The notes beneath the pieces are model-generated. The model did not search any database. It had not been told where the DNA came from and was given only the letters and a program-made list of their open reading frames with translations. A stretch of DNA of 64,000 nt from a virus, in the IMG/VR virus record IMGVR_UViG_3300032374_000001, positions 3,658 to 67,657 of that record. One strand, given 5' to 3'. Position 1 is the first letter of the stretch. Each line of letters begins with the position of its first letter. This document shows positions 3,674-51,992 of the stretch, in pieces. The position numbers and the translations under genes are program-made.

Positions 3674-3709
3674 TTGACGTGTCCTGTTTTATGCGCTGTA
3701 AATAGGACA
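3674..3709 (+). promoter_or_regulatory. Sigma70-type promoter with overlapping inverted-repeat operator
   Basis: TTGACG at 3674, GTAAAT/TAAATA at ~3698; inverted repeat TGTCCTGTTT (3680-3689) / AAATAGGACA (3700-3709). Confidence 0.6.
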
Positions 3710-3755
3710 TGGCGATGGGGATCAGCCCCGCGCCGCAAAGGGCAGGAGGCCCATC

Positions 3756-4070
3756 ATGCATCGCTACATCCTGATCGACCGGCACAGCGGCTACATCTTC
3801 GGCGACACGGCCGACTTCGCCGCTGGCCGCGAGTTCGACACGCCCGCCGAGGCTGCTGCAATCCTACACGAAACACTGCTCGACGGGGCGGTTGCCTTCG
3901 AGGCGTGCGGTGATCGAGACGAGCACGCGGTCTACGACGTGTATCAGGCCGACATCAACGGCAGCGACGCCGTGGGAGTCGTGCATGACGGCCAGGATCA
4001 GGAAACCATTGACGCCGTCGTGGCTGCCTGTGAGCACGTCAGCACGCTGCGCCGCGCCCAGGCCGCGTGA
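3756..4070 (+). CDS. Hypothetical acidic protein (moron gene 1)
   Basis: AGGAGG RBS, behind own promoter. Confidence 0.75.
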   Translation: MHRYILIDRHSGYIFGDTADFAAGREFDTPAEAAAILHETLLDGAVAFEACGDRDEHAVYDVYQADINGSDAVGVVHDGQDQETIDAVVAACEHVSTLRRAQAA

Positions 4071-4411: not shown

Positions 4412-4686
4412 CAATCCCCAACCCCACCGTCGCCGACTGGATCGCATCCGGGGAGACGACGATCGAGGTCTTTTGCGCTCCATCGGATGGCCCTGGATGC
4501 GGGCACCATGCCGTGGTGGATGTGACGACTCTGGACCCGAGGATGACCCGCTCCCGGCTGTGTCGGCAGGCAAGGTGCGCGAAGTGCGGGAAGCGGGGTG
4601 CTACGGTTCAGCGGGACATGGGCCGGCACTACGAGCGGCTCGCGGCGACCGGGTGGGGGTGTGATCCGTTCAAGGCGGGCGGTTAG
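4408..4686 (+). CDS. Zinc-ribbon small protein
   Basis: FC......CGH...RCAKCG; GTGA overlap. Confidence 0.65.
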   Translation: MTIPNPTVADWIASGETTIEVFCAPSDGPGCGHHAVVDVTTLDPRMTRSRLCRQARCAKCGKRGATVQRDMGRHYERLAATGWGCDPFKAGG

Positions 4687-39761: not shown

Positions 39762-40658
39762 CTACGGGGCGAAGCTCATCAGGGCGTTCTCGACGGCGCG
39801 ACGGCCTTCGACGCGGGCGCGCCTGCGCTCGGACTTGCGAACCGCGGGCTCGTCGAGATCGAGGATAGCCCGCGCTATACATCGACAACGGATCGGTTGA
39901 CCCGGATGTCCGTCGCTCGGAGGGCTATCCCAGCGGTAGACCTGACCTTCCCTGGCGCGGTGCAACGGGCGGACGCGGCGATCCCTCACCGTTGACCAAG
40001 AGTAGCGGTTCACCCCCGCCTGCGTCTGCCTGATCTCATTCAGATTGGCGTTGAACGAGTGGGCCTGATCGACCGCAATCAACTGGGCCCGTTTTTTGCC
40101 GAACCCGCCGATCTCCGTCAGTTTTGCCGCGATCTCTCTTGTTGAGGCGCCGCGTGAAACGAGGTCTGTGATTTCGACCTCAATCTTCTTTGCGACCTCG
40201 TCCGTAACACCCTTGATAAGTGCTACACTTTTGCGCGTCGCCAAGGTGATGGGTGTAGCCACCTGCTCCGAGTTCACCACCGCCTTGAGATCGACGCCGA
40301 TGACCGAATTGACCTGTTCAATCCACTTGGCGTCGTGCCGAGCAGCCTCGCCCTGAAACAGATTGCGCAGCGGGTTCTCTGCGAGCGCGATAGCCTGAGC
40401 GAATGATCCGCGCAGCGCCGAAACGATATCCGATAGGCCGAAGGCGTCTTGCGTCAGCAGCGTGCGATCCGCGCGGGCGCCTTCCATGAGGGCGGGCTTG
40501 GCAGAGTTGGCGACGCTCAGCACGCCCATGAGGATGCGGTAGAGCGCGACTTCGAAAGCGAGACGTGCACCGATGGGCTTAAGTTCGATCCGCCCTCGCT
40601 TGCCAGCGTCACGAGCGGCGGCGGCGAGATCGAAGGCGATGCGAAGCTTGAGGTTCAC
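39762..40658 (-). CDS. Head morphogenesis protein (SPP1 gp7/Mu F family)
   Basis: RAQLIA.DQ...N; Y.WST..D.RVR..H...EG; HPGQ.I.CRC. Confidence 0.92.
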   Translation of the reverse strand: MNLKLRIAFDLAAAARDAGKRGRIELKPIGARLAFEVALYRILMGVLSVANSAKPALMEGARADRTLLTQDAFGLSDIVSALRGSFAQAIALAENPLRNLFQGEAARHDAKWIEQVNSVIGVDLKAVVNSEQVATPITLATRKSVALIKGVTDEVAKKIEVEITDLVSRGASTREIAAKLTEIGGFGKKRAQLIAVDQAHSFNANLNEIRQTQAGVNRYSWSTVRDRRVRPLHRAREGQVYRWDSPPSDGHPGQPIRCRCIARAILDLDEPAVRKSERRRARVEGRRAVENALMSFAP

Positions 40659-42490
40659 TCGGCTGCCGCAGGTAGGGGTTCGTCAATGGGGTCGAACCGC
40701 TCTTCCCCGAGCGCAATCTTGCCCTGGTAGGGCTCGACCGCGCTCAAATCGAAGTCGCCCTCCGCCTTGCCGACCGTGATGTGAGGCGTGAACTCGTCGT
40801 AGTCCCAAGAGCACCCGGCCTCGCGCAGGCTCTCGTGACGCCAGCGGATCGACCAATCCGAGAAGCAGAGCACAATGGCCCCGCCGTCGAACCGCTCCAC
40901 CATGCGAGGCCCACCGCGTGGCACCAGCACCTTCTCCGCATCCGTGCCAACCGCGAACCAATCGACGGGCGTGCGGCTGTAGCAAATTGTGACGTGGAGA
41001 TCGCTGGCAGCGGGGACGTTCGGAATGCCCTGCCCTCTCGCCCATGCGATGATCTCGGCCGCGTTGGTGACGGGGCGCGACACGTAGAGCGAGCGCGGCG
41101 CCGCATCCTGTGCGATGGCCCGGCGGAGCGGGACGACGTTGGTCTCGGTGTCGTCCTCGCCTTCGTCGGGATCGGTCTCGGCGATCTTGCGCAGCTCGCT
41201 GCCAGCCGCGTCGAACTCCTCCATCGCATCGTCGAGTGCGGGGAAGTGCCCATCCTCGACCAGCCGGGAAACGACACCCTTCGACAGGGGCTCTTCGGGC
41301 ACGACACCCGCGTCCGAGATCAGCTTCACGCCCTGCGCGAGGGTATAGAACGTCTTGGCCTTCTGCTCCGGCGTCTCCTGCCAGAGGGAGTTGAACGAGA
41401 AGAACGCCCCGTCCGGGATCGTGATTCCGCCATCCGCGCACAGGATGGCGTCGAGCCGTTCCAGAGCGGGGCGAAAGTCGCTTTCCTGCTTGGCCGAGAT
41501 GGCATCGTAGTAGTTGCGCAGATCGCTTTCGCCGGTCGATTGCAGCCCGGCCGGGGCTTGCCCGAGCAACCGGGTGACCGGGATGTCCGCCGCGCCCGAA
41601 ATCTCCTGCATGGCCCGGATGTGGATATCCGACAGGCCTGCGAAATTGTAGGTGCGCTGCTGGTAGTCCTCTTCGGGCCCGAGCAGTAGCGTGTTGTTGA
41701 TCGACTTCAGCAGGCTTGCAAGGCCGAAGCGGCGAAGAATGCGGGCCTCGCCCTCTTCGGTGCCGATGCCCGCGAGATCGGCCTTGATGACATCGACCTT
41801 AGCCTCGTGCAGCAACGAGGCGATGACGGCAGAGACCGTGCCGGACGTGTTCAGCGTATCCTCGATCGCCGTGAAAATGCTGTCACCCCAGGACTGCGTC
41901 GTCTGCGCGAAGATGGGCGGCAGCGGAACGCCGTCGAACGGGATCACCCGCGAGGCATGGATCTTGACCTCTTGCCCGAGGGCAGACGCCCCGCCGCGGA
42001 CGACAGGGCGATAGACGTAGGTTCGCGGCTGGCCGAACAGCGGCGAGGCGATATCCGCCTCCCACGTGTCGATGTAGAGCCGGGCCCCCACCTCGACGTG
42101 CAGGTAGCTCAGATCGCCCCGACGCATTCTCGTCACGTCGAGCGGTTCGGAGGGCTCGCCCAGGCGCGTGTTCACGCCGACGATGATCGCTGCCGAGCCG
42201 TAGAGCCGTCCCCACCGCTTGCCCGCCGCAACGCGCGAGGCGAGGTTGAAGCGTTTCTCCTGCGCCTCGAACGCCTCGACGAATTTCTCGTCGCCCGTGT
42301 AGGTGCGCCAGCGGCGCGTCATGTCATCGACGGGAATGTCGATGATCTTCCGACCCAGCCAACCCGAGCGATACATCCGCTCGAACTCCTCCGGCGTGTG
42401 AGGCCGGACGTACCATGTGGTGGCGGAGGCCTTGTCCTTCTGCGTCCCAAGGTTGGAGACGAGATTGGCGAGGCCGTCGTTCGTCAGCAT
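40655..42490 (-). CDS. Portal protein (DUF1073 type) fused to C-terminal 2H phosphoesterase (Acb1/T4 gp57B-like)
   Basis: Portal: YR..W...KIIDIP.DDM.R.W, GAADIP..RLLG; C-terminal LHVTICYS and PHITV 2H motifs. Confidence 0.9.
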   Translation of the reverse strand: MLTNDGLANLVSNLGTQKDKASATTWYVRPHTPEEFERMYRSGWLGRKIIDIPVDDMTRRWRTYTGDEKFVEAFEAQEKRFNLASRVAAGKRWGRLYGSAAIIVGVNTRLGEPSEPLDVTRMRRGDLSYLHVEVGARLYIDTWEADIASPLFGQPRTYVYRPVVRGGASALGQEVKIHASRVIPFDGVPLPPIFAQTTQSWGDSIFTAIEDTLNTSGTVSAVIASLLHEAKVDVIKADLAGIGTEEGEARILRRFGLASLLKSINNTLLLGPEEDYQQRTYNFAGLSDIHIRAMQEISGAADIPVTRLLGQAPAGLQSTGESDLRNYYDAISAKQESDFRPALERLDAILCADGGITIPDGAFFSFNSLWQETPEQKAKTFYTLAQGVKLISDAGVVPEEPLSKGVVSRLVEDGHFPALDDAMEEFDAAGSELRKIAETDPDEGEDDTETNVVPLRRAIAQDAAPRSLYVSRPVTNAAEIIAWARGQGIPNVPAASDLHVTICYSRTPVDWFAVGTDAEKVLVPRGGPRMVERFDGGAIVLCFSDWSIRWRHESLREAGCSWDYDEFTPHITVGKAEGDFDLSAVEPYQGKIALGEERFDPIDEPLPAAAE

Positions 42491-43657: not shown

Positions 43658-44953
43658 TCAGAGGAGGTCCATCATGGAGGGGCCGGACTCCAACATCAGT
43701 TCGCTCAGAGCCCAGACCACGGCATCGACCCGGTCCGGTGAGCCCTCGCCGAGAAACCCGTCGGCCGTCATCGCGACCATCTGATCTTCCAAATGCTCAA
43801 GCCCGTCACCAATGTGGCTGACGCGACCCTGTTCGTAGAGAGCGGCCACCGGCTCGGAACGGACGATCTTGCCGCGCGAGGCAGTGACCATCTTGACGGC
43901 CACGTCTGGCCCGGCCGTTCGGATCACGCTTTCCACCATGGCGCCGCCGAAGTTCTTCTCAGCGACGATGCGGTCGGCTCGGTGATCGCGGTAGGCATCG
44001 ACCGCCCTGCGACCCCATCCAGCGGGCGAAAGCTTGCAGGTCCAATCCTTCAGAACGTAGGCCCGCCCATCGACACCGCGACCGGCGGCAACGATGCCGA
44101 TGCTATCGCCGTTGTCGTCACCGCCTGTGCCCGATGGGTCCACCCCGATCACCACCCGCTGCATCTGCGGGGGGACCTTCACCTCACGGGCCTTGTCGAT
44201 CATCGCCCGCGTCCAGAGGGCGCCAGGCACGTCGTCGAGGATTTCGGCCTCTAGCTCCTGTCGCCCGAGGCGGGTGCCTTCGTAGCGGGTCTTGAGCTTG
44301 GCGAGGAACTGCGCCGGCAGGTTCTCGGCGTTATCGAAGGTCGAACCGCGTGTGACTGCCGTTGTCGGATCGGCCAGGATTTCCCGGATGACCGGGATCG
44401 GACGCGGTGTCGTGGTCACGAACACACGCGGGTCAGCGCCGCGCCGCATCGTGAACTGGAGCATGTCCCAGGTCTCGCGAGCGTAGCGGTACTTGGCTAG
44501 CTCATCGACCCATGCCGTGTCGAACTCGGGGCCTCGGAGCTGATCTGGCTCGGTTCCGTTGTAGCCCAGCGCCACCGCGCCGTTGGGCCAGACCAACCGG
44601 ACGGGCTTGTAGCGGACACTCGGGGCTTCGCTCGGCGGGTGGATCGCGATGAGCCGCGCCACCATCACCTCTTCCAAGTCCTTCTGCGTTTCAGCCAAAA
44701 GCGCGATGCTGCGGGCACCGTCGCGGACTCGTTCACGCACCCACTGAGCGCCAGCTTCCGTCTTCCCGAACCCGCGGCCCGCAAGGGCCAACCACGTCTG
44801 CCAGCTATGGTCTGGCGCGATCTGATTGGGCCGCGCCCAGAACCGCCAGTCCCACAGCAGTTCTTCTGCCTGCGCCTCACTCAGGCTTGCGAGAAGTGCC
44901 TGTCGGTCCTGCGGTTGCAGCGAGGCGACCGAGCTTGCCAGAGAGGAGTTCAC
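43658..44953 (-). CDS. terL: Terminase large subunit
   Basis: Walker A AGRGFGKT, Walker B WVDE, GVDP nuclease motif, SPDRVDA. Confidence 0.96.
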   Translation of the reverse strand: MNSSLASSVASLQPQDRQALLASLSEAQAEELLWDWRFWARPNQIAPDHSWQTWLALAGRGFGKTEAGAQWVRERVRDGARSIALLAETQKDLEEVMVARLIAIHPPSEAPSVRYKPVRLVWPNGAVALGYNGTEPDQLRGPEFDTAWVDELAKYRYARETWDMLQFTMRRGADPRVFVTTTPRPIPVIREILADPTTAVTRGSTFDNAENLPAQFLAKLKTRYEGTRLGRQELEAEILDDVPGALWTRAMIDKAREVKVPPQMQRVVIGVDPSGTGGDDNGDSIGIVAAGRGVDGRAYVLKDWTCKLSPAGWGRRAVDAYRDHRADRIVAEKNFGGAMVESVIRTAGPDVAVKMVTASRGKIVRSEPVAALYEQGRVSHIGDGLEHLEDQMVAMTADGFLGEGSPDRVDAVVWALSELMLESGPSMMDLL

Positions 44954-45344
44954 GAGCGCTCGTCACTTCCGCCTGGATCGGCGCGCCGTCTGGGCCCGAA
45001 AGCTCATGCGAGACCTTATCGCGGAAATCGTCGGGGGCCATGTTGCGAAGCTGAAACACAACGATCTGTGCCGTGCCCGGCCCACCGCCCTTTTCGCCCA
45101 CGCGAGCTGCGCGCTGCTCCCACTTGAAAGCGGCCGCTGCCTTTCCCGCGTTACAAGCTACCGAAAACTCGGGGTGCTGATTGGCCCATTCCTGCAAAGT
45201 GGACCGCGCGACGCCGATTGATCCGGCAAAAGCGGTGAGTGAGTACCCGTCCCGGCAGAACTCCACGACCTGATCGCAATAGGCCGGATCGTACTTGGTC
45301 GGCCGTCCGCCTGCCCCCTTCTTCGGCTCTGTCTCTGAGCCCAT
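44877..45344 (-). CDS. terS: Terminase small subunit
   Basis: GRPTKY N-terminus, HTH (IGVARSTLQEW...HPEF), overlaps terL. Confidence 0.85.
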   Translation of the reverse strand: MGSETEPKKGAGGRPTKYDPAYCDQVVEFCRDGYSLTAFAGSIGVARSTLQEWANQHPEFSVACNAGKAAAAFKWEQRAARVGEKGGGPGTAQIVVFQLRNMAPDDFRDKVSHELSGPDGAPIQAEVTSARELLSGKLGRLAATAGPTGTSRKPE

Positions 45345-45353
45345 GGTGATGGC

Positions 45354-46723
45354 CTATGTGCTAGGTGTGCCAGAGATGACCGGCTCGGGCGGCTTGATCT
45401 CACAGGTCATGAGGCTGCCGACCATGCTGATCGTGATACCACCGTGCTGGAACTCACCAACGCGGGTCAGTGCCTCGCGAGCATGGTCTGCGGCAACCCT
45501 GATCGCCTCCAGGCTGGCGAGGGCTTCATCCATCGCCGCCTTGTCGTACTTGAAGCCGAGACGCACGATCATCTCGGAAAGGGCGTCCGACGACGCCTTA
45601 TCGTTCTGTGCGGCGCTCATAACGTCTCACCCTTCAGGTATCTCGCGATCCGCTCCGCCCGGCACATCACATCCTCAACGGGAGCGTCGGGGAGTTCTTG
45701 GCGGGCTTTAACGAGGGCTCGGGCGAAATTGTCAGGGTCAGGCAGGCGTCCAACGCGCTCATGCGCAGCCGCACTGGAGTCGAAGCTTGTGCCCTGACGC
45801 TCGTGAGACACGCCCTACCCCTCCTTGGGCTGGTGAGCGATGCAGCCGAAGTCGGAGCGGGTGCGAAGCTCACCCCACTGCTCTTGACCCGAAGGTGAGA
45901 AACCCACCGCGAAGACGGCGGTGTCTATGTTTTTCGGACGCCCGAAGTCATCAGTGTGGGCCAGTGAACAAACTTGCCACTCCGCCCCAAGGATGCGAGC
46001 ACCGTCCTCCCCCCAATGCCGGCACGTCTCGCACTTCGGCATCTCGGTCGGCATCGTCAGCCCTCACCCGCCTCATCCAGATCCGCCGCCGTGATGGCAC
46101 GCCCGCCGACACGTGCAGCGATCTCGCCCAATTGCTCGGGCGTGAAATCAGCCTCGGCTCTCTCTGCGACAGCTCTCGTGGCATACATGCCGGGAAGCCA
46201 GGATTGCTCTCCGAGGATCATGTAGCTGTCTTCGACGGATTGGACGCTCATGAGAGGTGTCCGGCTCTGGCATCCTTCAGCCGATAGCCCGCATTGATCA
46301 CCAGCGCCGCATGCCGGTTGATGAGGCGATCCGGGACTGCGGCTGCCCTGACCTCAGCCTCACGACGCTCAGCCATCGAGCGGCAGACAGCAACGGCGCC
46401 GCGAGCGTGCGGGCTATCGTCCATCGCGAGGCTGTGAGAGGCGAGGCCGGCGGGGAGGGTCATGCCCAGCCATTGTCCTTAGCGATCTCGGCCACGCGCT
46501 CGCGACCAATGCGCGACGCTTCAGGCGAACCCGTGTAGACCATGACACCGAACTGATTGAACGGGCGCTCGGTAACGATGCCAGCGTTCACCAGCTCATT
46601 CATGGCAGGCCGAACCTTATCGAGCGTTGCGTGAGGTGGATGCGACTTCACCTCGCTTCCCTGCCCCATGGAGAACCAGCGGGCGCAGACATCGCGAGCA
46701 GCTTGGCTGACCTCTGCCATCAC
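45354..46723 (-). CDS. Run of six small hypothetical genes (45354-45620, 45617-45811, 45815-46054, 46057-46251, 46248-46463, 46460-46723)
   Basis: Back-to-back ORFs with 4-bp overlaps and RBS between late leader and terS. Confidence 0.65.
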
Positions 46724-46861
46724 GCCTCACCCTCCACACTCATCCGATCCGACACCGGCTTGCGCCTCTCGTCCCTGACGGCCTTGGCGAGATCGCGAGG
46801 AGAGAGGCCGTGATCTCGGGCGATGCGGAGGAGGGAGGCGGCGGCGGCGGAGGAGGGCCGG

Positions 46862-46990
46862 TCAGTTGTTTGTGAAGCCAACTGCCAGACCGAAGACAAT
46901 CAGCGCAGAAATGAGGACTGAAAGGGCGCCATATAGAAACTGGCGCATGTCATTCAGCGTCTCGCGCTCGGCAGACTTGAGCAGGTGCAT
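46862..46990 (-). CDS. 42-aa single-TM peptide
   Basis: MHLLKSAERETLNDMRQFLYGALSVLISALIVFGLAVGFTNN; GGACGAG RBS-like element. Confidence 0.5.
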   Translation of the reverse strand: MHLLKSAERETLNDMRQFLYGALSVLISALIVFGLAVGFTNN

Positions 46991-47009
46991 GGCTCTCGTC
47001 CTGCGGTAA

Positions 47010-47700
47010 GGGCTCGATGCGGGCCGGCAACCTACCTCCGGCTCCCTCCCCGCCTAGGTTCGGGGATATCACCTACCCGTGCGAAGACGGGCCGCATCGA
47101 TCTCGTCCACCACCCAAGCCGATCAGCGTCCGTGTGCAAGGAGGCGCTAAGGCTTGGTGCGCTGTCTGTGCGTGGGTGGGGATGGGAATTGGCGCGGCGG
47201 GCGCCTCGCTGTCGCAAAACGCCCGCCTGTGTAATGCCGAATGCCGGGCCTTCGCCGGCTCTAGCGCTGCCTCTGTAGACCGATCGCGTTGCCCGGGGGC
47301 TAGAGGCGCCGGCCATGTTGTGTGTCGATGCGTGCCGGCAGATATATCGGCCAAGAGGGGTGACGCCTGCCTCGCCGTTCAGCACGGGCCCCGAAGGGTG
47401 CGGAGGAGTGATCCTCGCGTGCTGAGGGCGACCCGATATGGTCCTCTCCGCATCGATCTCGTCCCAGCCTCTCGGCTGGATTGTCCTGCCCTGGCGCGAT
47501 GGGCGCGGGGCGAAAACAGTCAACTCTCCCGTCGCAAGGAAAGCGCTGGCCACCTGTGGCCCTAGCAATCTCCTCACGACCGGCTGCCGTCCCTATGGGG
47601 TTCTGCGCAGATGAGCGATGCTCGGGCGCTCGGGTCTTGGCCAACGGCCTAAGCTCAGCGAGCGCCTTAGTCGTGCACCGAACATGAATCGCTCAGCCGC
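47010..47700 (-). ncRNA. Candidate long structured late leader/ncRNA
   Basis: No credible ORF; dense nested hairpins; duplicated 16-nt and 17-nt motifs that pair with each other. Confidence 0.5.
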
Positions 47701-47708
47701 CAAGTCAA
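47680..47708 (-). promoter_or_regulatory. Putative late promoter
   Basis: TTGACT overlapping the NusG-paralogue stop codon, position analogous to lambda pR'; -10 weak. Confidence 0.4.
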
Positions 47709-48460
47709 CGGTTAGGGCGAATACCACCGCCTTTTTCCACAGGCGGACGCGTCGCGTTGCGAAGCCACTCGATCGGCGTCAGAACCGGCGTTGCCCGTCC
47801 GAATATGAGCGCCTCGATCTTGACGAGCGGACCGTCACCGTCCTCCGACGCCACGCCCTTGAACGATGCAAACGGCCCGCCGAGGATGTCCACGCTGTCG
47901 CCCTCGGCGAACGCCGGCAGCGGCACGATCTCGGCCTCGCCTGCCACGAGAGCGTCGCGCCTGTCGTCGTCGTACCAGCCCGTCGCCTCCTCGCGGGCCA
48001 TCTTGGCGATCGAGCCGCAGCGCATCGGCGCGGGCTTGCCGTTGTTGGTGACGATGCCGGCCACTTCCATGCGATTCCGGCCCAGCAGGTCGGTCTCGTA
48101 GAGCGGGTTCAGCGATTGCCCGTCCGTGATGCCGACGAACACGTAGCTACCCAGCAGCGGCGTCTGGATCTGCCGCCGAATGCGCAGGTCGCCTCGGCTC
48201 GACTCCCGCCAGTGCGTCCGCATCGGTGCATAGGCCTGAAGCCCGGCCGCCCTGATCTTGCGCACGGCGTGCGCCACACGGCCGGGCCTGGCCGACACGG
48301 CGTGCCACCACAGCCGCTTCTCGCCGGTCTCGATCCGGCACGGCTCGATCCGCTCGCAGAGCGGCAACGCGATCTCGCGCCGCTTCGCCAGCGGCACGCG
48401 GGAGAAATGGACGGGCGTCGCCTTGGCGGCGCCGTAACGGCCCAGGTGGGGGGTACTCAT
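47705..48460 (-). CDS. NusG/RfaH-family paralogue (NGN + KOW), probable late antiterminator
   Basis: WWHAV...PG...AYAPM...PLLGSYVFV (NGN); GD.V.ILGGPFASFKG...IFGRATPV (KOW). Confidence 0.9.
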   Translation of the reverse strand: MSTPHLGRYGAAKATPVHFSRVPLAKRREIALPLCERIEPCRIETGEKRLWWHAVSARPGRVAHAVRKIRAAGLQAYAPMRTHWRESSRGDLRIRRQIQTPLLGSYVFVGITDGQSLNPLYETDLLGRNRMEVAGIVTNNGKPAPMRCGSIAKMAREEATGWYDDDRRDALVAGEAEIVPLPAFAEGDSVDILGGPFASFKGVASEDGDGPLVKIEALIFGRATPVLTPIEWLRNATRPPVEKGGGIRPNR

Positions 48461-49316: not shown

Positions 49317-51992
49317 TCAGAACTCCGTCCGGCGAGCCGCGGCAGGGGCCGGAACGCCATCGAACCGGCGGTTTACGTCATGCTCGCGTGACGAGTATCC
49401 TTTGGTCCCGTTGGACAGCGGATCGAGCTTGTGATCCTCCCAAAACCGGAGCCCGGCGCCGTTCATGCGGATGCCGGTGATGAACCGCTCGCCGTCGTGC
49501 GCCTGTTCGCCTTCCATATTGGCGTAAGGCGCGAGTTGTCGGACCTGTGGGAAGAACTGGCGCCCACCCCAGGCGCGCGCGTCGGCACCCATTTCCTCGC
49601 GCTGCCAGCCGTTGAACGAGCAGCGCAAGTCGTTGCGGGAGACCTTGCAGGTCGGGTCTTTCTCGATCGCGACCGACATCCAGGCAGCCACCGGGTTGTT
49701 GTCGTCCCGGAACCGGCGGTTGGCCTCCTTGACGCTGGCCGGCGGGTCGTAGCGACCGCGAGCCCGCAGGCGGTCGAGACCATCAAGCGCCCAGTTCAGG
49801 ATGCCTGGCCCCTCGCGACGCGCGATCTCCTCCCCGACAAGACTGTCTGGAGACAGTCCCAGCGCCTCGCGTGCAGCCCGAGCTTCGTGCTCCTCGACGA
49901 CGTTCGTCATCTCGATCACGATGCAGCGGTTATAGATCGCCTCCGACGAGTCGCGCGCCCGCGGCATCGCGTTGGTCGTCAAGAGGACGGGTATCTCGAA
50001 GTTCGTATCGATCGGCGTCCGGTTCTTCCGGTTCACCGTGACGCCCTCCCCCGTCACCAGCACCTTGAAGCGGATGGGATCGACGTGGTCGCGCTCGGAC
50101 ACGGCGTCGTCGCGAATCCAGGCCCGCGATCCGAGCAGGATCTGCATCCCGAAATCACCCGTCACGTCGGCGACCGACGGCGACGCGATCGGATCGCCGA
50201 TCATGCGCCGCGCCACGGTCGAGAGCTGCGTCTTGCCGGTGCGTGACGGCCCGAGCACGAACAGCGCCTTTCGCTCCTCGCGGACCAGCATCTTGACCGA
50301 CAGCATGGCGCCGAAGGCTTCCTGCATTGTCGCGATGACGCCGGCCCGCTCCTCAGTGCCGAGGTTCGTGAAGCAGGAGTCGAGGAAGCGCAGGAAGATC
50401 GGGCATTCAGCACCTGGCTCGTAGGGCTGGCCGATCTTGGACCGACACCACGCGTCCGGCCGATACTGACCCAACGCGCGCGTGCGAAGGTCCAGCAGCC
50501 CGTTGGCCGTGGCGACGAGGCCGCCACCATCCCAGGTCACGCGACGCTGGTGCAGGCCAGGATGTTCATTCAACCGTTTCCAGGCTGCGTTCGCCGTCTT
50601 CGTGTCGCCTGCACACCCGAGATCATCGCAGCCGGTCTGAATGAGCGTGCGGAGCCACTGCTCGTCGGCTGGCGCGCAGGCTCGCCACACACCTTCCTCG
50701 TACAACCAGACCTCGCCCTCGGTCAGAGCGATGTCCATGCCGGCGCGTCGGATCACCTCCACGACGCCGTCCGCGACGGCCACCGGGACCGCGGCCTTGC
50801 CTGTCGGCGCCTTCGGTTCGCGCTCCTTCTTACGCTTCTGGCGCTCCTCGCCGAGATTGTGGACGACAGCGCCGGTCGAGGCCTCACGGACCTCGACTTC
50901 GCCCTTAAAGGAATCGCCCCTATCTACCTCGCGCGCTTGCGCTCTCGGCCGCTCTGGCGCCTTAAGGGAATCGGTCTTGTTCATGACTTCGGGGTGCTTC
51001 TTCACCCAATCCGAGCACATGCCGCGGATCACTTTCTCCTCGCGATCCCAGCGCCAGCGGGCGCCGTCCTCGCCGGCTGCGGCCTTGGTCGCTTCCAGAA
51101 GCAGATCGATCACGTCCTCTGCATCCTCGCCGCGCGCCAAGAGTGACGCCGAGACGGCGAGCTGAGTGTTGTGAATCGAGGCTTCGCCGACGCCTTGATA
51201 TGACATCGCGGCAAGGCGCTGCTCGACATCGACCGGCGGCTTGAAGCCGAGTTTGGCGGCAGCGGCGAGAAAGGGGTTGTCGAAGGCCTGGACCGCGGCT
51301 GTACCGTCCTTGCGCACGACGGCTTTGCGCCGGATCGCCGGCCCGGCCCGGTCCAGCCATTCCTCAAGGTCGCCAAGTTCGTATCGCGCGGTCAGGTGCA
51401 TATGCACGACCTCGCACGGCAGCGACGCACCCTCCTTAGTGTTCCGACTGCCCGGCAAGCGCATTAGGCGGGTGACGTCCTGCACCGGGTCGCCACCTAC
51501 GAGGTCCGAGATGCGGGCGTTCATCGCCTCGATCTGAACGATAGAGTCCTCGTCAGCCTCGATCGGCTCGTTCAGGAGCCAGTAGCTGTGCGCGCCGCGG
51601 CCGGACCAAACGATGATCGAGGGCGGCATCTCCAGCGCCAGCAGGGCGGCGATGACGGCCTCGCGGTTAATCTCGATCGACTTCAGATCGGTGTCGCCGT
51701 GCAGGCATACGATCTCGGCGACGTTGGCCTTGCAGCGGACGGACTTGCCCGGCTCCGGCGGCTTCGCGTCCGGCCGCAGCGTGGAGACGCAGAAGAAGGT
51801 GCCGCGGCCCGCCCGGTCGTACTTGCGGGCGTGACCGTCAATGGAGAGCCGGTCGCGGCCGAGATAGGCGCGCTCGGGCCCGTCGCCACGCTCGTTGGCG
51901 AGCGACGTGACGAAAACGGGCGCGACCGATCCGGCGCCGAAAAAGGCAGCCAGGAATTCGGACGGCGTCGAAGGGAGCTTGCCTGGCATCAC
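49317..51992 (-). CDS. Primase-helicase (RepB-type primase N-terminal, D5/P4-type SF3 helicase C-terminal)
   Basis: HGDTD, SG.G.HSYW, RLMRLPGS.N.K; Walker A GPSRTGKT; FK.L.TGE.V...RK; LLTTN..P. Confidence 0.93.
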   Translation of the reverse strand: MMPGKLPSTPSEFLAAFFGAGSVAPVFVTSLANERGDGPERAYLGRDRLSIDGHARKYDRAGRGTFFCVSTLRPDAKPPEPGKSVRCKANVAEIVCLHGDTDLKSIEINREAVIAALLALEMPPSIIVWSGRGAHSYWLLNEPIEADEDSIVQIEAMNARISDLVGGDPVQDVTRLMRLPGSRNTKEGASLPCEVVHMHLTARYELGDLEEWLDRAGPAIRRKAVVRKDGTAAVQAFDNPFLAAAAKLGFKPPVDVEQRLAAMSYQGVGEASIHNTQLAVSASLLARGEDAEDVIDLLLEATKAAAGEDGARWRWDREEKVIRGMCSDWVKKHPEVMNKTDSLKAPERPRAQAREVDRGDSFKGEVEVREASTGAVVHNLGEERQKRKKEREPKAPTGKAAVPVAVADGVVEVIRRAGMDIALTEGEVWLYEEGVWRACAPADEQWLRTLIQTGCDDLGCAGDTKTANAAWKRLNEHPGLHQRRVTWDGGGLVATANGLLDLRTRALGQYRPDAWCRSKIGQPYEPGAECPIFLRFLDSCFTNLGTEERAGVIATMQEAFGAMLSVKMLVREERKALFVLGPSRTGKTQLSTVARRMIGDPIASPSVADVTGDFGMQILLGSRAWIRDDAVSERDHVDPIRFKVLVTGEGVTVNRKNRTPIDTNFEIPVLLTTNAMPRARDSSEAIYNRCIVIEMTNVVEEHEARAAREALGLSPDSLVGEEIARREGPGILNWALDGLDRLRARGRYDPPASVKEANRRFRDDNNPVAAWMSVAIEKDPTCKVSRNDLRCSFNGWQREEMGADARAWGGRQFFPQVRQLAPYANMEGEQAHDGERFITGIRMNGAGLRFWEDHKLDPLSNGTKGYSSREHDVNRRFDGVPAPAAARRTEF

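Follow-up and report, generated by a model that had tools for sequence, protein, structure and literature searches.

A covarying leader RNA and helix-closed domains in the gap between a phage NusG paralogue gene and the late operon

This study concerns a 64-kb stretch of DNA (the window), which is part of a 69.6-kb IMG/VR viral record and in which the local genes lie on the minus strand, and specifically the 714-nt gap (46991-47704, minus strand) between a gene for a NusG-like protein and the first late open reading frame (ORF). The best-supported element in this gap is a leader of about 165 nt (47677-47511), which the initial annotation of this DNA did not describe, and the two domains that it did describe correspond to a second module that is present twice, each time with UCGAUGCGG/CCGCAUCGA as its closing helix. 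We estimate the probability at about 0.5 that the gap is a cis-acting leader of the late operon, within which the NusG paralogue, or RNA polymerase alone, would read through termination.

The gap is non-coding, since the GC content at third codon positions (GC3) is flat across 47010-47700 (0.60–0.72 in all frames, compared with 0.85–0.97 in the adjacent NusG-like gene) and the long ORFs of 181 and 182 aa on its two strands have no Pfam or PHROG family match. The absence of a credible gene had been stated in the initial annotation and is borne out. A coding reading that included short upstream ORFs from ATGs in the 5' arms of the closing helices (24, 21, 9 and 20 codons) was also tried and rejected; neither these nor the long ORFs have a family match or a GC3 signal, and their length and sequence are not conserved.

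The leader was recognised by comparison with related loci (designated by L). In the close relatives L002, L003 and L004, whose NusG-like protein is 79–82% identical, the first ~170 nt past the NusG stop codon are conserved far above the sequence downstream, and a stretch of ~50 nt is almost invariant. The leader is also present at distant NusG-like loci, namely L047 (35% identity), L046 (33–34%) and L006 (38%), and in a reduced form at L066 and L072 (31–33%). Covariation, which had been named as the sign to look for in related loci, is present by RNAalifold as well as by counts of pair changes. In a MAFFT alignment of 7 loci, RNAalifold finds P2, the short hairpin in the GAGAAC-NCC-NUAGGGAC loop and P5, with 12 pairs changing on both sides, and P3 and P4 contribute further covarying pairs that are clear by inspection. 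In a model-fitted alignment, which leans towards the model and contains one spurious eighth row, 93% of the cells are paired and double changes occur in 19 pairs, compared with 8.4±1.8 in shuffles and at most 5 with slid partners. Standard pairs make up 252 of 271 cells in the sense reading and 233 of 271 in the antisense reading (24 G·U vs 5 A·C), and this excess points to an RNA in the direction of the genes and not to a DNA palindrome. Moreover, the minimum free energy (MFE) structure of the window copy by itself gives the consensus fold (z = -2.6). A helix closing the leader (leader P1, 5' CACGAC with downstream AGUUGU or GUCGUG) was considered and rejected: it holds only in four close relatives, is not upheld in L046, L006 and L047, and was omitted from the model.

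The leader model R1 scores 118–176 bits on its 7 source sequences, and 27 and 35 bits on L066 and L072, which are independent of it. Contigs from five further public runs span the leader at 91–96% identity, and when the listed substitutions are mapped onto alignment A7, every one of them either lies in a loop or keeps the pairing. For example, 47561 and 47548 change together from G-C to A-U, the variant at 47547 repairs the single mismatch of the window copy, and those at 47536, 47558 and 47660 switch between wobble and Watson-Crick pairs.

All leader copies (9 of 9) lie just downstream of a homologous NusG-like gene (31–91% identity), and the one at L072 was found by a nucleotide pattern without use of the protein. 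In six of the seven aligned loci the leader follows the gene directly, the exception being L006. Pattern searches added few copies: the P2/P4 pattern gave 14 matches in GTDB genomes, all due to chance by inspection; the P5 pattern matched at least 120 GTDB loci, with no convincing leader by the model among the matches listed (best L136, 14 bits, E=0.09); and in IMG/VR the P5 pattern gave one true match, L072. Separately, a closed domain occurs with a different upstream leader at L064 (3165-3330) and L068 (1600-1940), which share GCAAAGTGCGAAGC and have no R1 match; the NusG-like family may use a second type of leader at these loci.

A promoter-like site precedes the leader, and its -35 box overlaps the TGA stop codon of the NusG paralogue. 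TTGA stands at a fixed 33–34 nt before the conserved 5' CACGA of the leader in 7 of 7 aligned loci (full TTGAC in 5 of 7; A6), the -10 box reads YATGTT (TATGTT or CATGTT) in contigs of runs X4 and X8 (other runs are designated by X), and the site in L046 is TTGAAC-16-TATAAC. At L006 two genes separate the NusG-like gene from the leader, which still retains its own TTGAC box, so the leader travels with a promoter-like box of its own. In runs X4, X8 and X9 identity drops exactly at 47675, the predicted 5' end of the leader, and we infer that the transcript starts at about this position. A near-consensus site (TTGACA-17-TATAAT), followed by a leader with a P5-like hairpin, was also observed at L048 (1770-1912); an HNH gene lies between it and the upstream NusG-like gene P0009, and R1 scores only 10 bits there.

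At the other end of the leader lies hairpin T, which is formed by the 3' strand of P5 paired to the next few bases (5–6 bp). Since T uses this strand, it excludes P5. A terminator scan flags T in the window and at the homologous place in L003, and equivalent hairpins with covarying stems and a U-rich tail were found by eye in L046, L047 and L006, the last of which also has a canonical GC hairpin followed by UUUU ahead of its first gene. We infer that hairpin T terminates or pauses the polymerase. Several of the statements made here on T, P4 and the Pc hairpin of the closed domains come from reading the sequences and not from a scored model.

The rest of the gap is modular, and does not form the single large RNA of ~700 nt that had been proposed. 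The repeats on which the two closed domains (d1 and d2) were based are present: 47014-47029 and 47325-47340 are identical at 15 of 16 positions, 47092-47108 and 47448-47464 at 17 of 17, and the repeat counts in the window were reached by no shuffle of it. The two ends of each domain can pair with each other, over 9 bp and a further 3 in d1 and over 8 bp in d2, and GGACGAGA sits ahead of both domains and of the first late ORF, as had been noted. There are five copies of GGACGAGA in the window, four of them within 46767-47464 on the minus strand, and three of these four are followed by N3-ATG. In other runs homology breaks 2–4 nt past each GGACGAGA-N3-ATG, for which swapped short ORFs and the edges of selected helices are both possible explanations.

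The closing helix (P1), UUCGAUG(A)CGG/CCG(U)CAUCGAA, encloses 71–132 nt and was found in 8 copies at 6 loci, the domains being 87 nt (d1), 132 nt (d2), 122 nt (L002), 126 nt (L003), 132 nt (L047) and 99 nt (L068) long, with two copies in L064. P1 is retained through change, with an inserted A-U pair in L003, one G·U pair in L064a, and two compensatory pairs plus one G·U in L064b. Two hairpins flank it on the inside: Pc, a 5-bp hairpin that is usually CCGG-8 to 10 nt-CCGG and abuts the 3' arm, and Pa, a hairpin with a GAAGGA or GAGGGA loop just past the 5' arm (L003, L047, L068 and L064b), in which L047 and L003 differ by two compensatory pairs. Among the 8 copies, independent MFE folds give P1 in every one, Pc in six and Pa in four. 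The sequence between Pa and Pc differs from copy to copy. From these comparisons the closed-domain module is real and probably an RNA, and within it only the closing helix and the flanking hairpins appear to be under selection. The duplicated motif of the initial annotation is thus confirmed for the closing helix together with one or two flanking hairpins, but not for the details of the interiors: the C(UUCG)G loop of d2 is conserved in no relative and is confined to the interior of this phage, and the proposed pseudoknot (GAGAGG/CCUCUU crossed with AUAUCGG/CCGAUAU) lacks comparative support because none of the d2 interior pairings is conserved in any relative. Nor are the stems, which had been described as nested throughout, above chance within the domains. 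The fold z is -0.7 for both window copies and -1.0 to +0.2 in two relatives, and only L003 is exceptional (-4.2); for the whole gap it is -2.4 (only 20 shuffles).

Contigs in eight other runs have flanks and arms 95–100% identical to the window, with the interiors replaced, and the homology breakpoints recur across runs at 47027/28, 47091, 47450 and 46987/88. The break at 47450, a little inward of the 5' arm of d2, is seen in X2, X4 and X9, and that at 46987/46988, where the ATG of the first late ORF lies, in X2, X3, X4, X5, X6 and X10. The interior of d1 is kept in X3, X5 and X10, replaced in X6 (110 nt for 63) and X4, and diverged in X2. The spacer ahead of d2 is 93–98% identical in X5, X6, X4, X9 and X10, and is laid out like the block that precedes d1, in which the hairpin is CCAAGCC...GGCUUGG. 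The ~90-nt U-block upstream of d1 aligns with that of the single domain in L002 and L003 (A9), so d1 is the counterpart of that domain, and d2 with its surroundings makes up ~335 nt that these two relatives do not have. In X5, 126 nt replace 47148-47465 of the window (318 nt). The layout with two domains is not unique to this phage, since X4 and X10 show pieces of both.

The protein encoded ahead of the gap scores 30.9 bits with the Pfam NusG NGN model (cut-off 22.2), and the KOW region of TIGR00922 matches its residues 175-226 weakly. The element thus encodes a NusG-family protein (NGN plus KOW), as is characteristic of specialised NusG paralogue systems. The paralogue falls below the cut-offs of the RfaH equivalog (TIGR01955, 19.2 bits vs 144.5) and of the UpxY subfamily (NF033644, 33.4 bits vs 100), and also below the NCBIfam cut-off for NusG. 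Its family is small (about 21 clusters at E<1e-10 in a search of 1.8 billion representative proteins) and shares a conserved N-terminal extension of ~50 aa before the NGN domain (A3). The extension carries the motifs ATPxHF and E-PL...R..PP-I and is a candidate nucleic-acid-binding arm; the members P0008 and P0012 additionally have long C-terminal tails.

The initial annotation had proposed an undescribed structured RNA at the head of the late operon, tied to the NusG paralogue. What stands of this is that the gap is non-coding, that it holds covarying RNA without a match in Rfam 15, and that this RNA recurs beside NusG-like genes; among the functions then listed, a loading site or antitermination leader fits best with the comparative data. 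A long untranslated leader with a conserved 5' element of ~165 nt is present in 9 loci, and its role in recruitment is putative. According to the mechanism that we propose, the gap would be the untranslated leader of the late (packaging, head and tail) operon, built from modules. Transcription would start at the promoter whose -35 box overlaps the stop codon of the paralogue gene, and the first ~165 nt would fold into the conserved multi-helix RNA P2-P5, in which P5 competes with the short hairpin and U-rich tract as a candidate terminator or pause site. The paralogue, as the product of the preceding early operon, would load onto RNA polymerase within the leader, recognising either the nascent RNA (as LoaP) or non-template DNA at a pause (as RfaH and UpxY). 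Loading would then allow read-through of the leader terminator and of later ones along the ~40-kb late operon, and the outcome would be a late switch like that of lambda Q, made from an unrelated protein. The closed domains may serve as accessory leader RNA, such as a second binding site, a processing site or a 5' structure that stabilises the mRNA.

Several points weigh against this interpretation. Gene neighbourhood is what links the leader to the paralogue, and the count of leaders beside NusG-like genes is biased because most loci were reached via the protein. Only about 9 lineages, including 4 close ones, were compared, R1 finds no leader at the NusG-like loci L048, L064 and L065, nor at L068, and of the public runs that hold this DNA none is on record as RNA. 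The -10 box is weak and a strict sigma-70 scan does not score the site, so the promoter is a putative one. Hairpin T is short (5–6 bp), and the U-tract of L002 is poor. As for the domains, a variant at 47098 in X5 makes an A·C mismatch in P1 of d1 unless it is compensated at an unlisted place, and part of the gap may lack function, because the domain interiors lack conservation and their folds are no more stable than those of shuffled sequences.

The leader itself might make the polymerase resistant to termination independently of a protein, as HK022 put and the Bacillus EAR element do, with the paralogue acting elsewhere or assisting. This would suit a compact multi-helix RNA with conserved loop sequences at the 5' end of the transcript, directly past the promoter as put is, with terminator-like sites downstream. 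We consider it unlikely, in view of the constant position of the nine copies beside a NusG-like gene of one family and the lack of similarity to any Rfam family. It is also conceivable that P2-P4 senses a metabolite, a nucleotide signal or a host protein and so sets the choice between P5, as anti-terminator, and T, in the manner of a riboswitch or a factor-dependent attenuator. P5 and T are indeed mutually exclusive in all loci examined, and nucleotides of internal and hairpin loops are conserved, as in aptamers. A weak match to c-di-GMP-I-GGC lies nearby, the best sub-threshold Rfam match in the window (22 bits vs a gathering score of 59). However, this match covers the 5' flank of d2 and not the leader, and is absent in all relatives. 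At gathering score Rfam 15 gives no match in the window, and the eight related loci give none at E<=1. No known aptamer family matches, and the link to the paralogue would be left unexplained, which makes such an attenuator quite unlikely. The earlier failure to match the gap to a tRNA or riboswitch thus agrees with the Rfam search, and ARAGORN found no tRNA or tmRNA in the window.

For the closed domains, other functions have to be weighed. They may be cut by RNase III, RNase P or RNase E as processing or stability elements, or yield processed small RNAs, so that the cut separates the leader from the late mRNA or frees a regulatory RNA like CI of phage P4 or C4 of phage P1. The closing helix of 9–12 bp abuts the 5-bp Pc in a coaxial stack resembling that of an acceptor and T-arm, the repeated complementary 9-mers recall seqA/B/C of phage P4, and d1 lies ~20 nt from the first ribosome-binding site. 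Yet the ARAGORN result gives no tRNA or tmRNA, the Pc loops mostly break the U...A rule of T-loops, a canonical RNase III site would need longer helices and the L047 domain does not adjoin a start codon; we regard processing as distinctly improbable. Related ideas of a tRNA-like structure, a T-loop or an RNase P substrate, and of a CsrA-type sponge with GGA loops, were rejected as unsupported by conserved loop rules or by counts. If the domains were DNA-level sites instead, their inverted 9-mers would bind the small terminase (cos/pac), a recombinase or invertase, or a late regulator, or would end small mobile elements. Both arms are conserved in sequence beyond what pairing requires, even at 34–35% NusG identity, the exchange of interiors has sharp borders, like that in cassette systems, and the region lies upstream of the terminase genes. 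Against this, the G·U pairs in P1, Pa and Pc fit only sense RNA. A cos or pac site was rejected and a packaging role, as RNA or as site, is unlikely because phages that share the arms carry different small-terminase families (HTH_7-like here, Terminase_2 in L003 and another in L064) at varying distances (0.4–1.7 kb from terS), contrary to one proposal of the initial annotation. Invertons, miniature inverted-repeat transposable elements and integron-attC-like sites were likewise rejected: there is no adjacent recombinase gene, no target-site duplication and no further copy in the window or IMG/VR. The 17-mer GGACGAGATCGATGCGG has 38 matches in IMG/VR, all in-frame chance matches encoding Asp-Glu-Ile-Asp-Ala and none with the partner arm, and a 24-mer over the 3' arm plus ribosome-binding site has no matches there. 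Sites acting as DNA are therefore highly improbable.

The two domains could also be mosaic filler with little function, a spacer under weak constraint that was shuffled and duplicated as related phages recombined at short conserved blocks, so that just the leader and the ribosome-binding site matter. Their interiors are unrelated and no more stable than shuffles, and lengths vary, with ~335 nt more in the window than in L002 between leader and U-block and 126 nt in X5 against 318 in the window. What makes this explanation improbable is that the arms, Pc and Pa (GAAGGA loop, 4 copies) are kept with compensatory changes across NusG-like genes of 30–35% identity, and that the two-domain layout recurs in X4 and X10. 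A further proposal joins the leader and the closed domains: the two-part RNA system would be a new class of antitermination switch in alphaproteobacterial-type phages, read by the N-terminal extension of the paralogue, with the interiors as swappable specificity or decoy cassettes. We offer this as a tentative and somewhat doubtful extension of the leader mechanism.

The proposed read-through leader resembles several known systems in part. LoaP, with the dfn/mln leaders of Bacillus velezensis, likewise pairs a specialised NusG paralogue with a long untranslated leader, in which an RNA hairpin required for antitermination is followed by a weak, NusA-dependent intrinsic terminator and a pause (PMC12691694). 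In the gap the conserved hairpins P2-P5 precede a hairpin plus U-tract, and if the promoter-like site and hairpin T act as predicted, this is the order of the dfn leader. Unlike LoaP, the protein here is phage-encoded, carries an N-terminal extension and may lie outside the LoaP clade. In place of one small hairpin there is a four-helix element with a second, closed module; the operon controlled would be the late operon of a phage, and the system is known from sequence alone. With RfaH-ops and UpxY-opsX it shares the recruitment of a NusG paralogue in a promoter-proximal leader at a paused polymerase, which for the present locus is a prediction from its sequence. UpxY recognises the paused polymerase in leaders of capsular polysaccharide (CPS) operons, helped by RNA hairpins (PMC11685472). 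These pause hairpins in the nascent RNA (PMC11685472), and a paralogue gene that can adjoin the target operon, are likenesses to the present case. The differences are that the protein here is under the RfaH and UpxY cut-offs and that no ops-like 12-mer is conserved: the ops 12-mer GGCGGTAGNNTG was not found conserved in relatives on the non-template strand of the leader, and ops-like matches are not enriched in the window (87 vs 77 expected). In the gap the only near match is GGAGGTAGGTTG (47039-47028, minus strand), which departs from the E. coli ops consensus at a single position and belongs to the Pc loop of d1, within the non-conserved interior.

In lambda Q (PR'-qut-tR', 6S RNA leader), genome position and logic are those proposed for the present locus: the regulator gene is the last of the early/replication operon and is followed by the late promoter, a leader of ~150–200 nt ending in a terminator, and one long late operon. 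Q, however, has no relation to NusG and loads at a DNA site in the promoter, and the leader of lambda does not form a conserved multi-helix RNA. HK022 putL and putR resemble the leader as structured RNA directly past the promoter that possibly acts in cis, with two related copies per phage; they differ in consisting of two stem-loops (~70 nt) at two operons with no phage protein needed, whereas the copies here follow one another within a single leader and have just the closing helix in common, and there is no match in sequence or structure. In the literature searched, no leader of this kind is described for a phage NusG paralogue. How NusG paralogues besides RfaH find their targets is only now emerging, LoaP and UpxY having been characterised in 2024–2025, and the control of phage late genes beyond the lambda-Q, sigma-factor and activator models is largely uncharted. 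The locus is a compact cassette of protein gene, putative promoter, covarying RNA of ~165 nt and terminator-like site, and in the second module a sequence-conserved closing helix with hypervariable interiors makes an unusual evolutionary pattern. If the link to the paralogue is true, this would be an RNA-guided, phage-borne branch of the NusG-paralogue family, with two new Rfam families.

Table 1. Features in and around the gap, in the order of transcription (positions are those of the window)
Feature	Position	Strand	Remarks
D5-type primase-helicase	49317-51992	-	upstream end of the local gene order
Phage NusG paralogue, 251 aa (P0001)	47705..48460	-	Pfam NGN E=4e-7; PHROG 6386 'transcription antiterminator' E=2e-12
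Promoter-like site	47681..47708	-	-35 TTGACT 47708-47703, 16-nt spacer, -10 CATGTT 47686-47681; putative function
Conserved leader RNA P2-P5	47531..47677	-	covariation
P2, long hairpin	47665-47626	-	internal loop CUGAGC/GACCC plus bulged A
P3	47623-47613	-	
P4	47610-47584	-	encloses conserved loop GAGAAC-NCC-NUAGGGAC
P5, long hairpin	47578-47533	-	
Hairpin T (CUUUCC/GGGAGAG), then U-rich tract UUGACUGUUUU	47513..47544	-	terminator- or pause-like
Spacer	47457..47512	-	hairpin CCAGCC-GAGA-GGCUGG 47479-47464; first GGACGAGA 47464-47457
Closed domain d2, 132 nt	47325..47456	-	P1 arms 47456-47449 and 47332-47325; interior specific to this phage
Inter-domain stretch	47109..47324	-	last ~90 nt (about 47200-47109) are the U-block, homologous to L002/L003
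Second GGACGAGA	47108-47101	-	at end of U-block
Closed domain d1, 87 nt	47014..47100	-	P1 arms 47100-47092 and 47022-47014; Pc (CCGG-loop-CCGG) abuts 3' arm
Ribosome-binding region of first late ORF	46988..47013	-	third GGACGAGA 47001-46994, ATG 46990-46988, read from sequence
First late ORF, 42 aa	46862..46990	-	one hydrophobic helix
terS	44877-45344	-	small terminase, HTH_7-like
terL	43658-44953	-	

The gene order on the minus strand is primase-helicase, an unknown ORF, the NusG-like gene, the gap, several small ORFs, terS, terL and portal. Family searches agree with the flanking genes assigned in the initial annotation, that is, the NusG-like gene upstream, and the small ORFs, terS, terL and portal downstream. 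No DNA match was found among deposited phages, the sole protein match among them being a Microcystis phage (33% identity), and species-representative genomes contain no close relatives of the NusG paralogue or the portal protein. The first late ORF is not conserved, and relatives have different small ORFs in its place. A small conserved protein with the motif RIA..HGLS...LAKAV....RKP is encoded at 46720-46860 (minus strand) and in L003 at 4418-4594; it is common to the otherwise differing sets of small ORFs at the early-late junction, and its 3' end is conserved also in X5 and X6.

At L047, Acb2/Tad1-like and Ros/MucR genes (1315-1997) lie upstream of the NusG-like gene, and a lower-GC ORF of 73 aa on the opposite strand (3697-3918) lies within the gap between leader and terminase. 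In the window, the portal protein (40655-42490, minus strand) carries a C-terminal Acb1 phosphodiesterase domain directed against the cyclic-oligonucleotide-based antiphage signalling system (anti-CBASS; PF23474, E=2.5e-35, residues 467-604).

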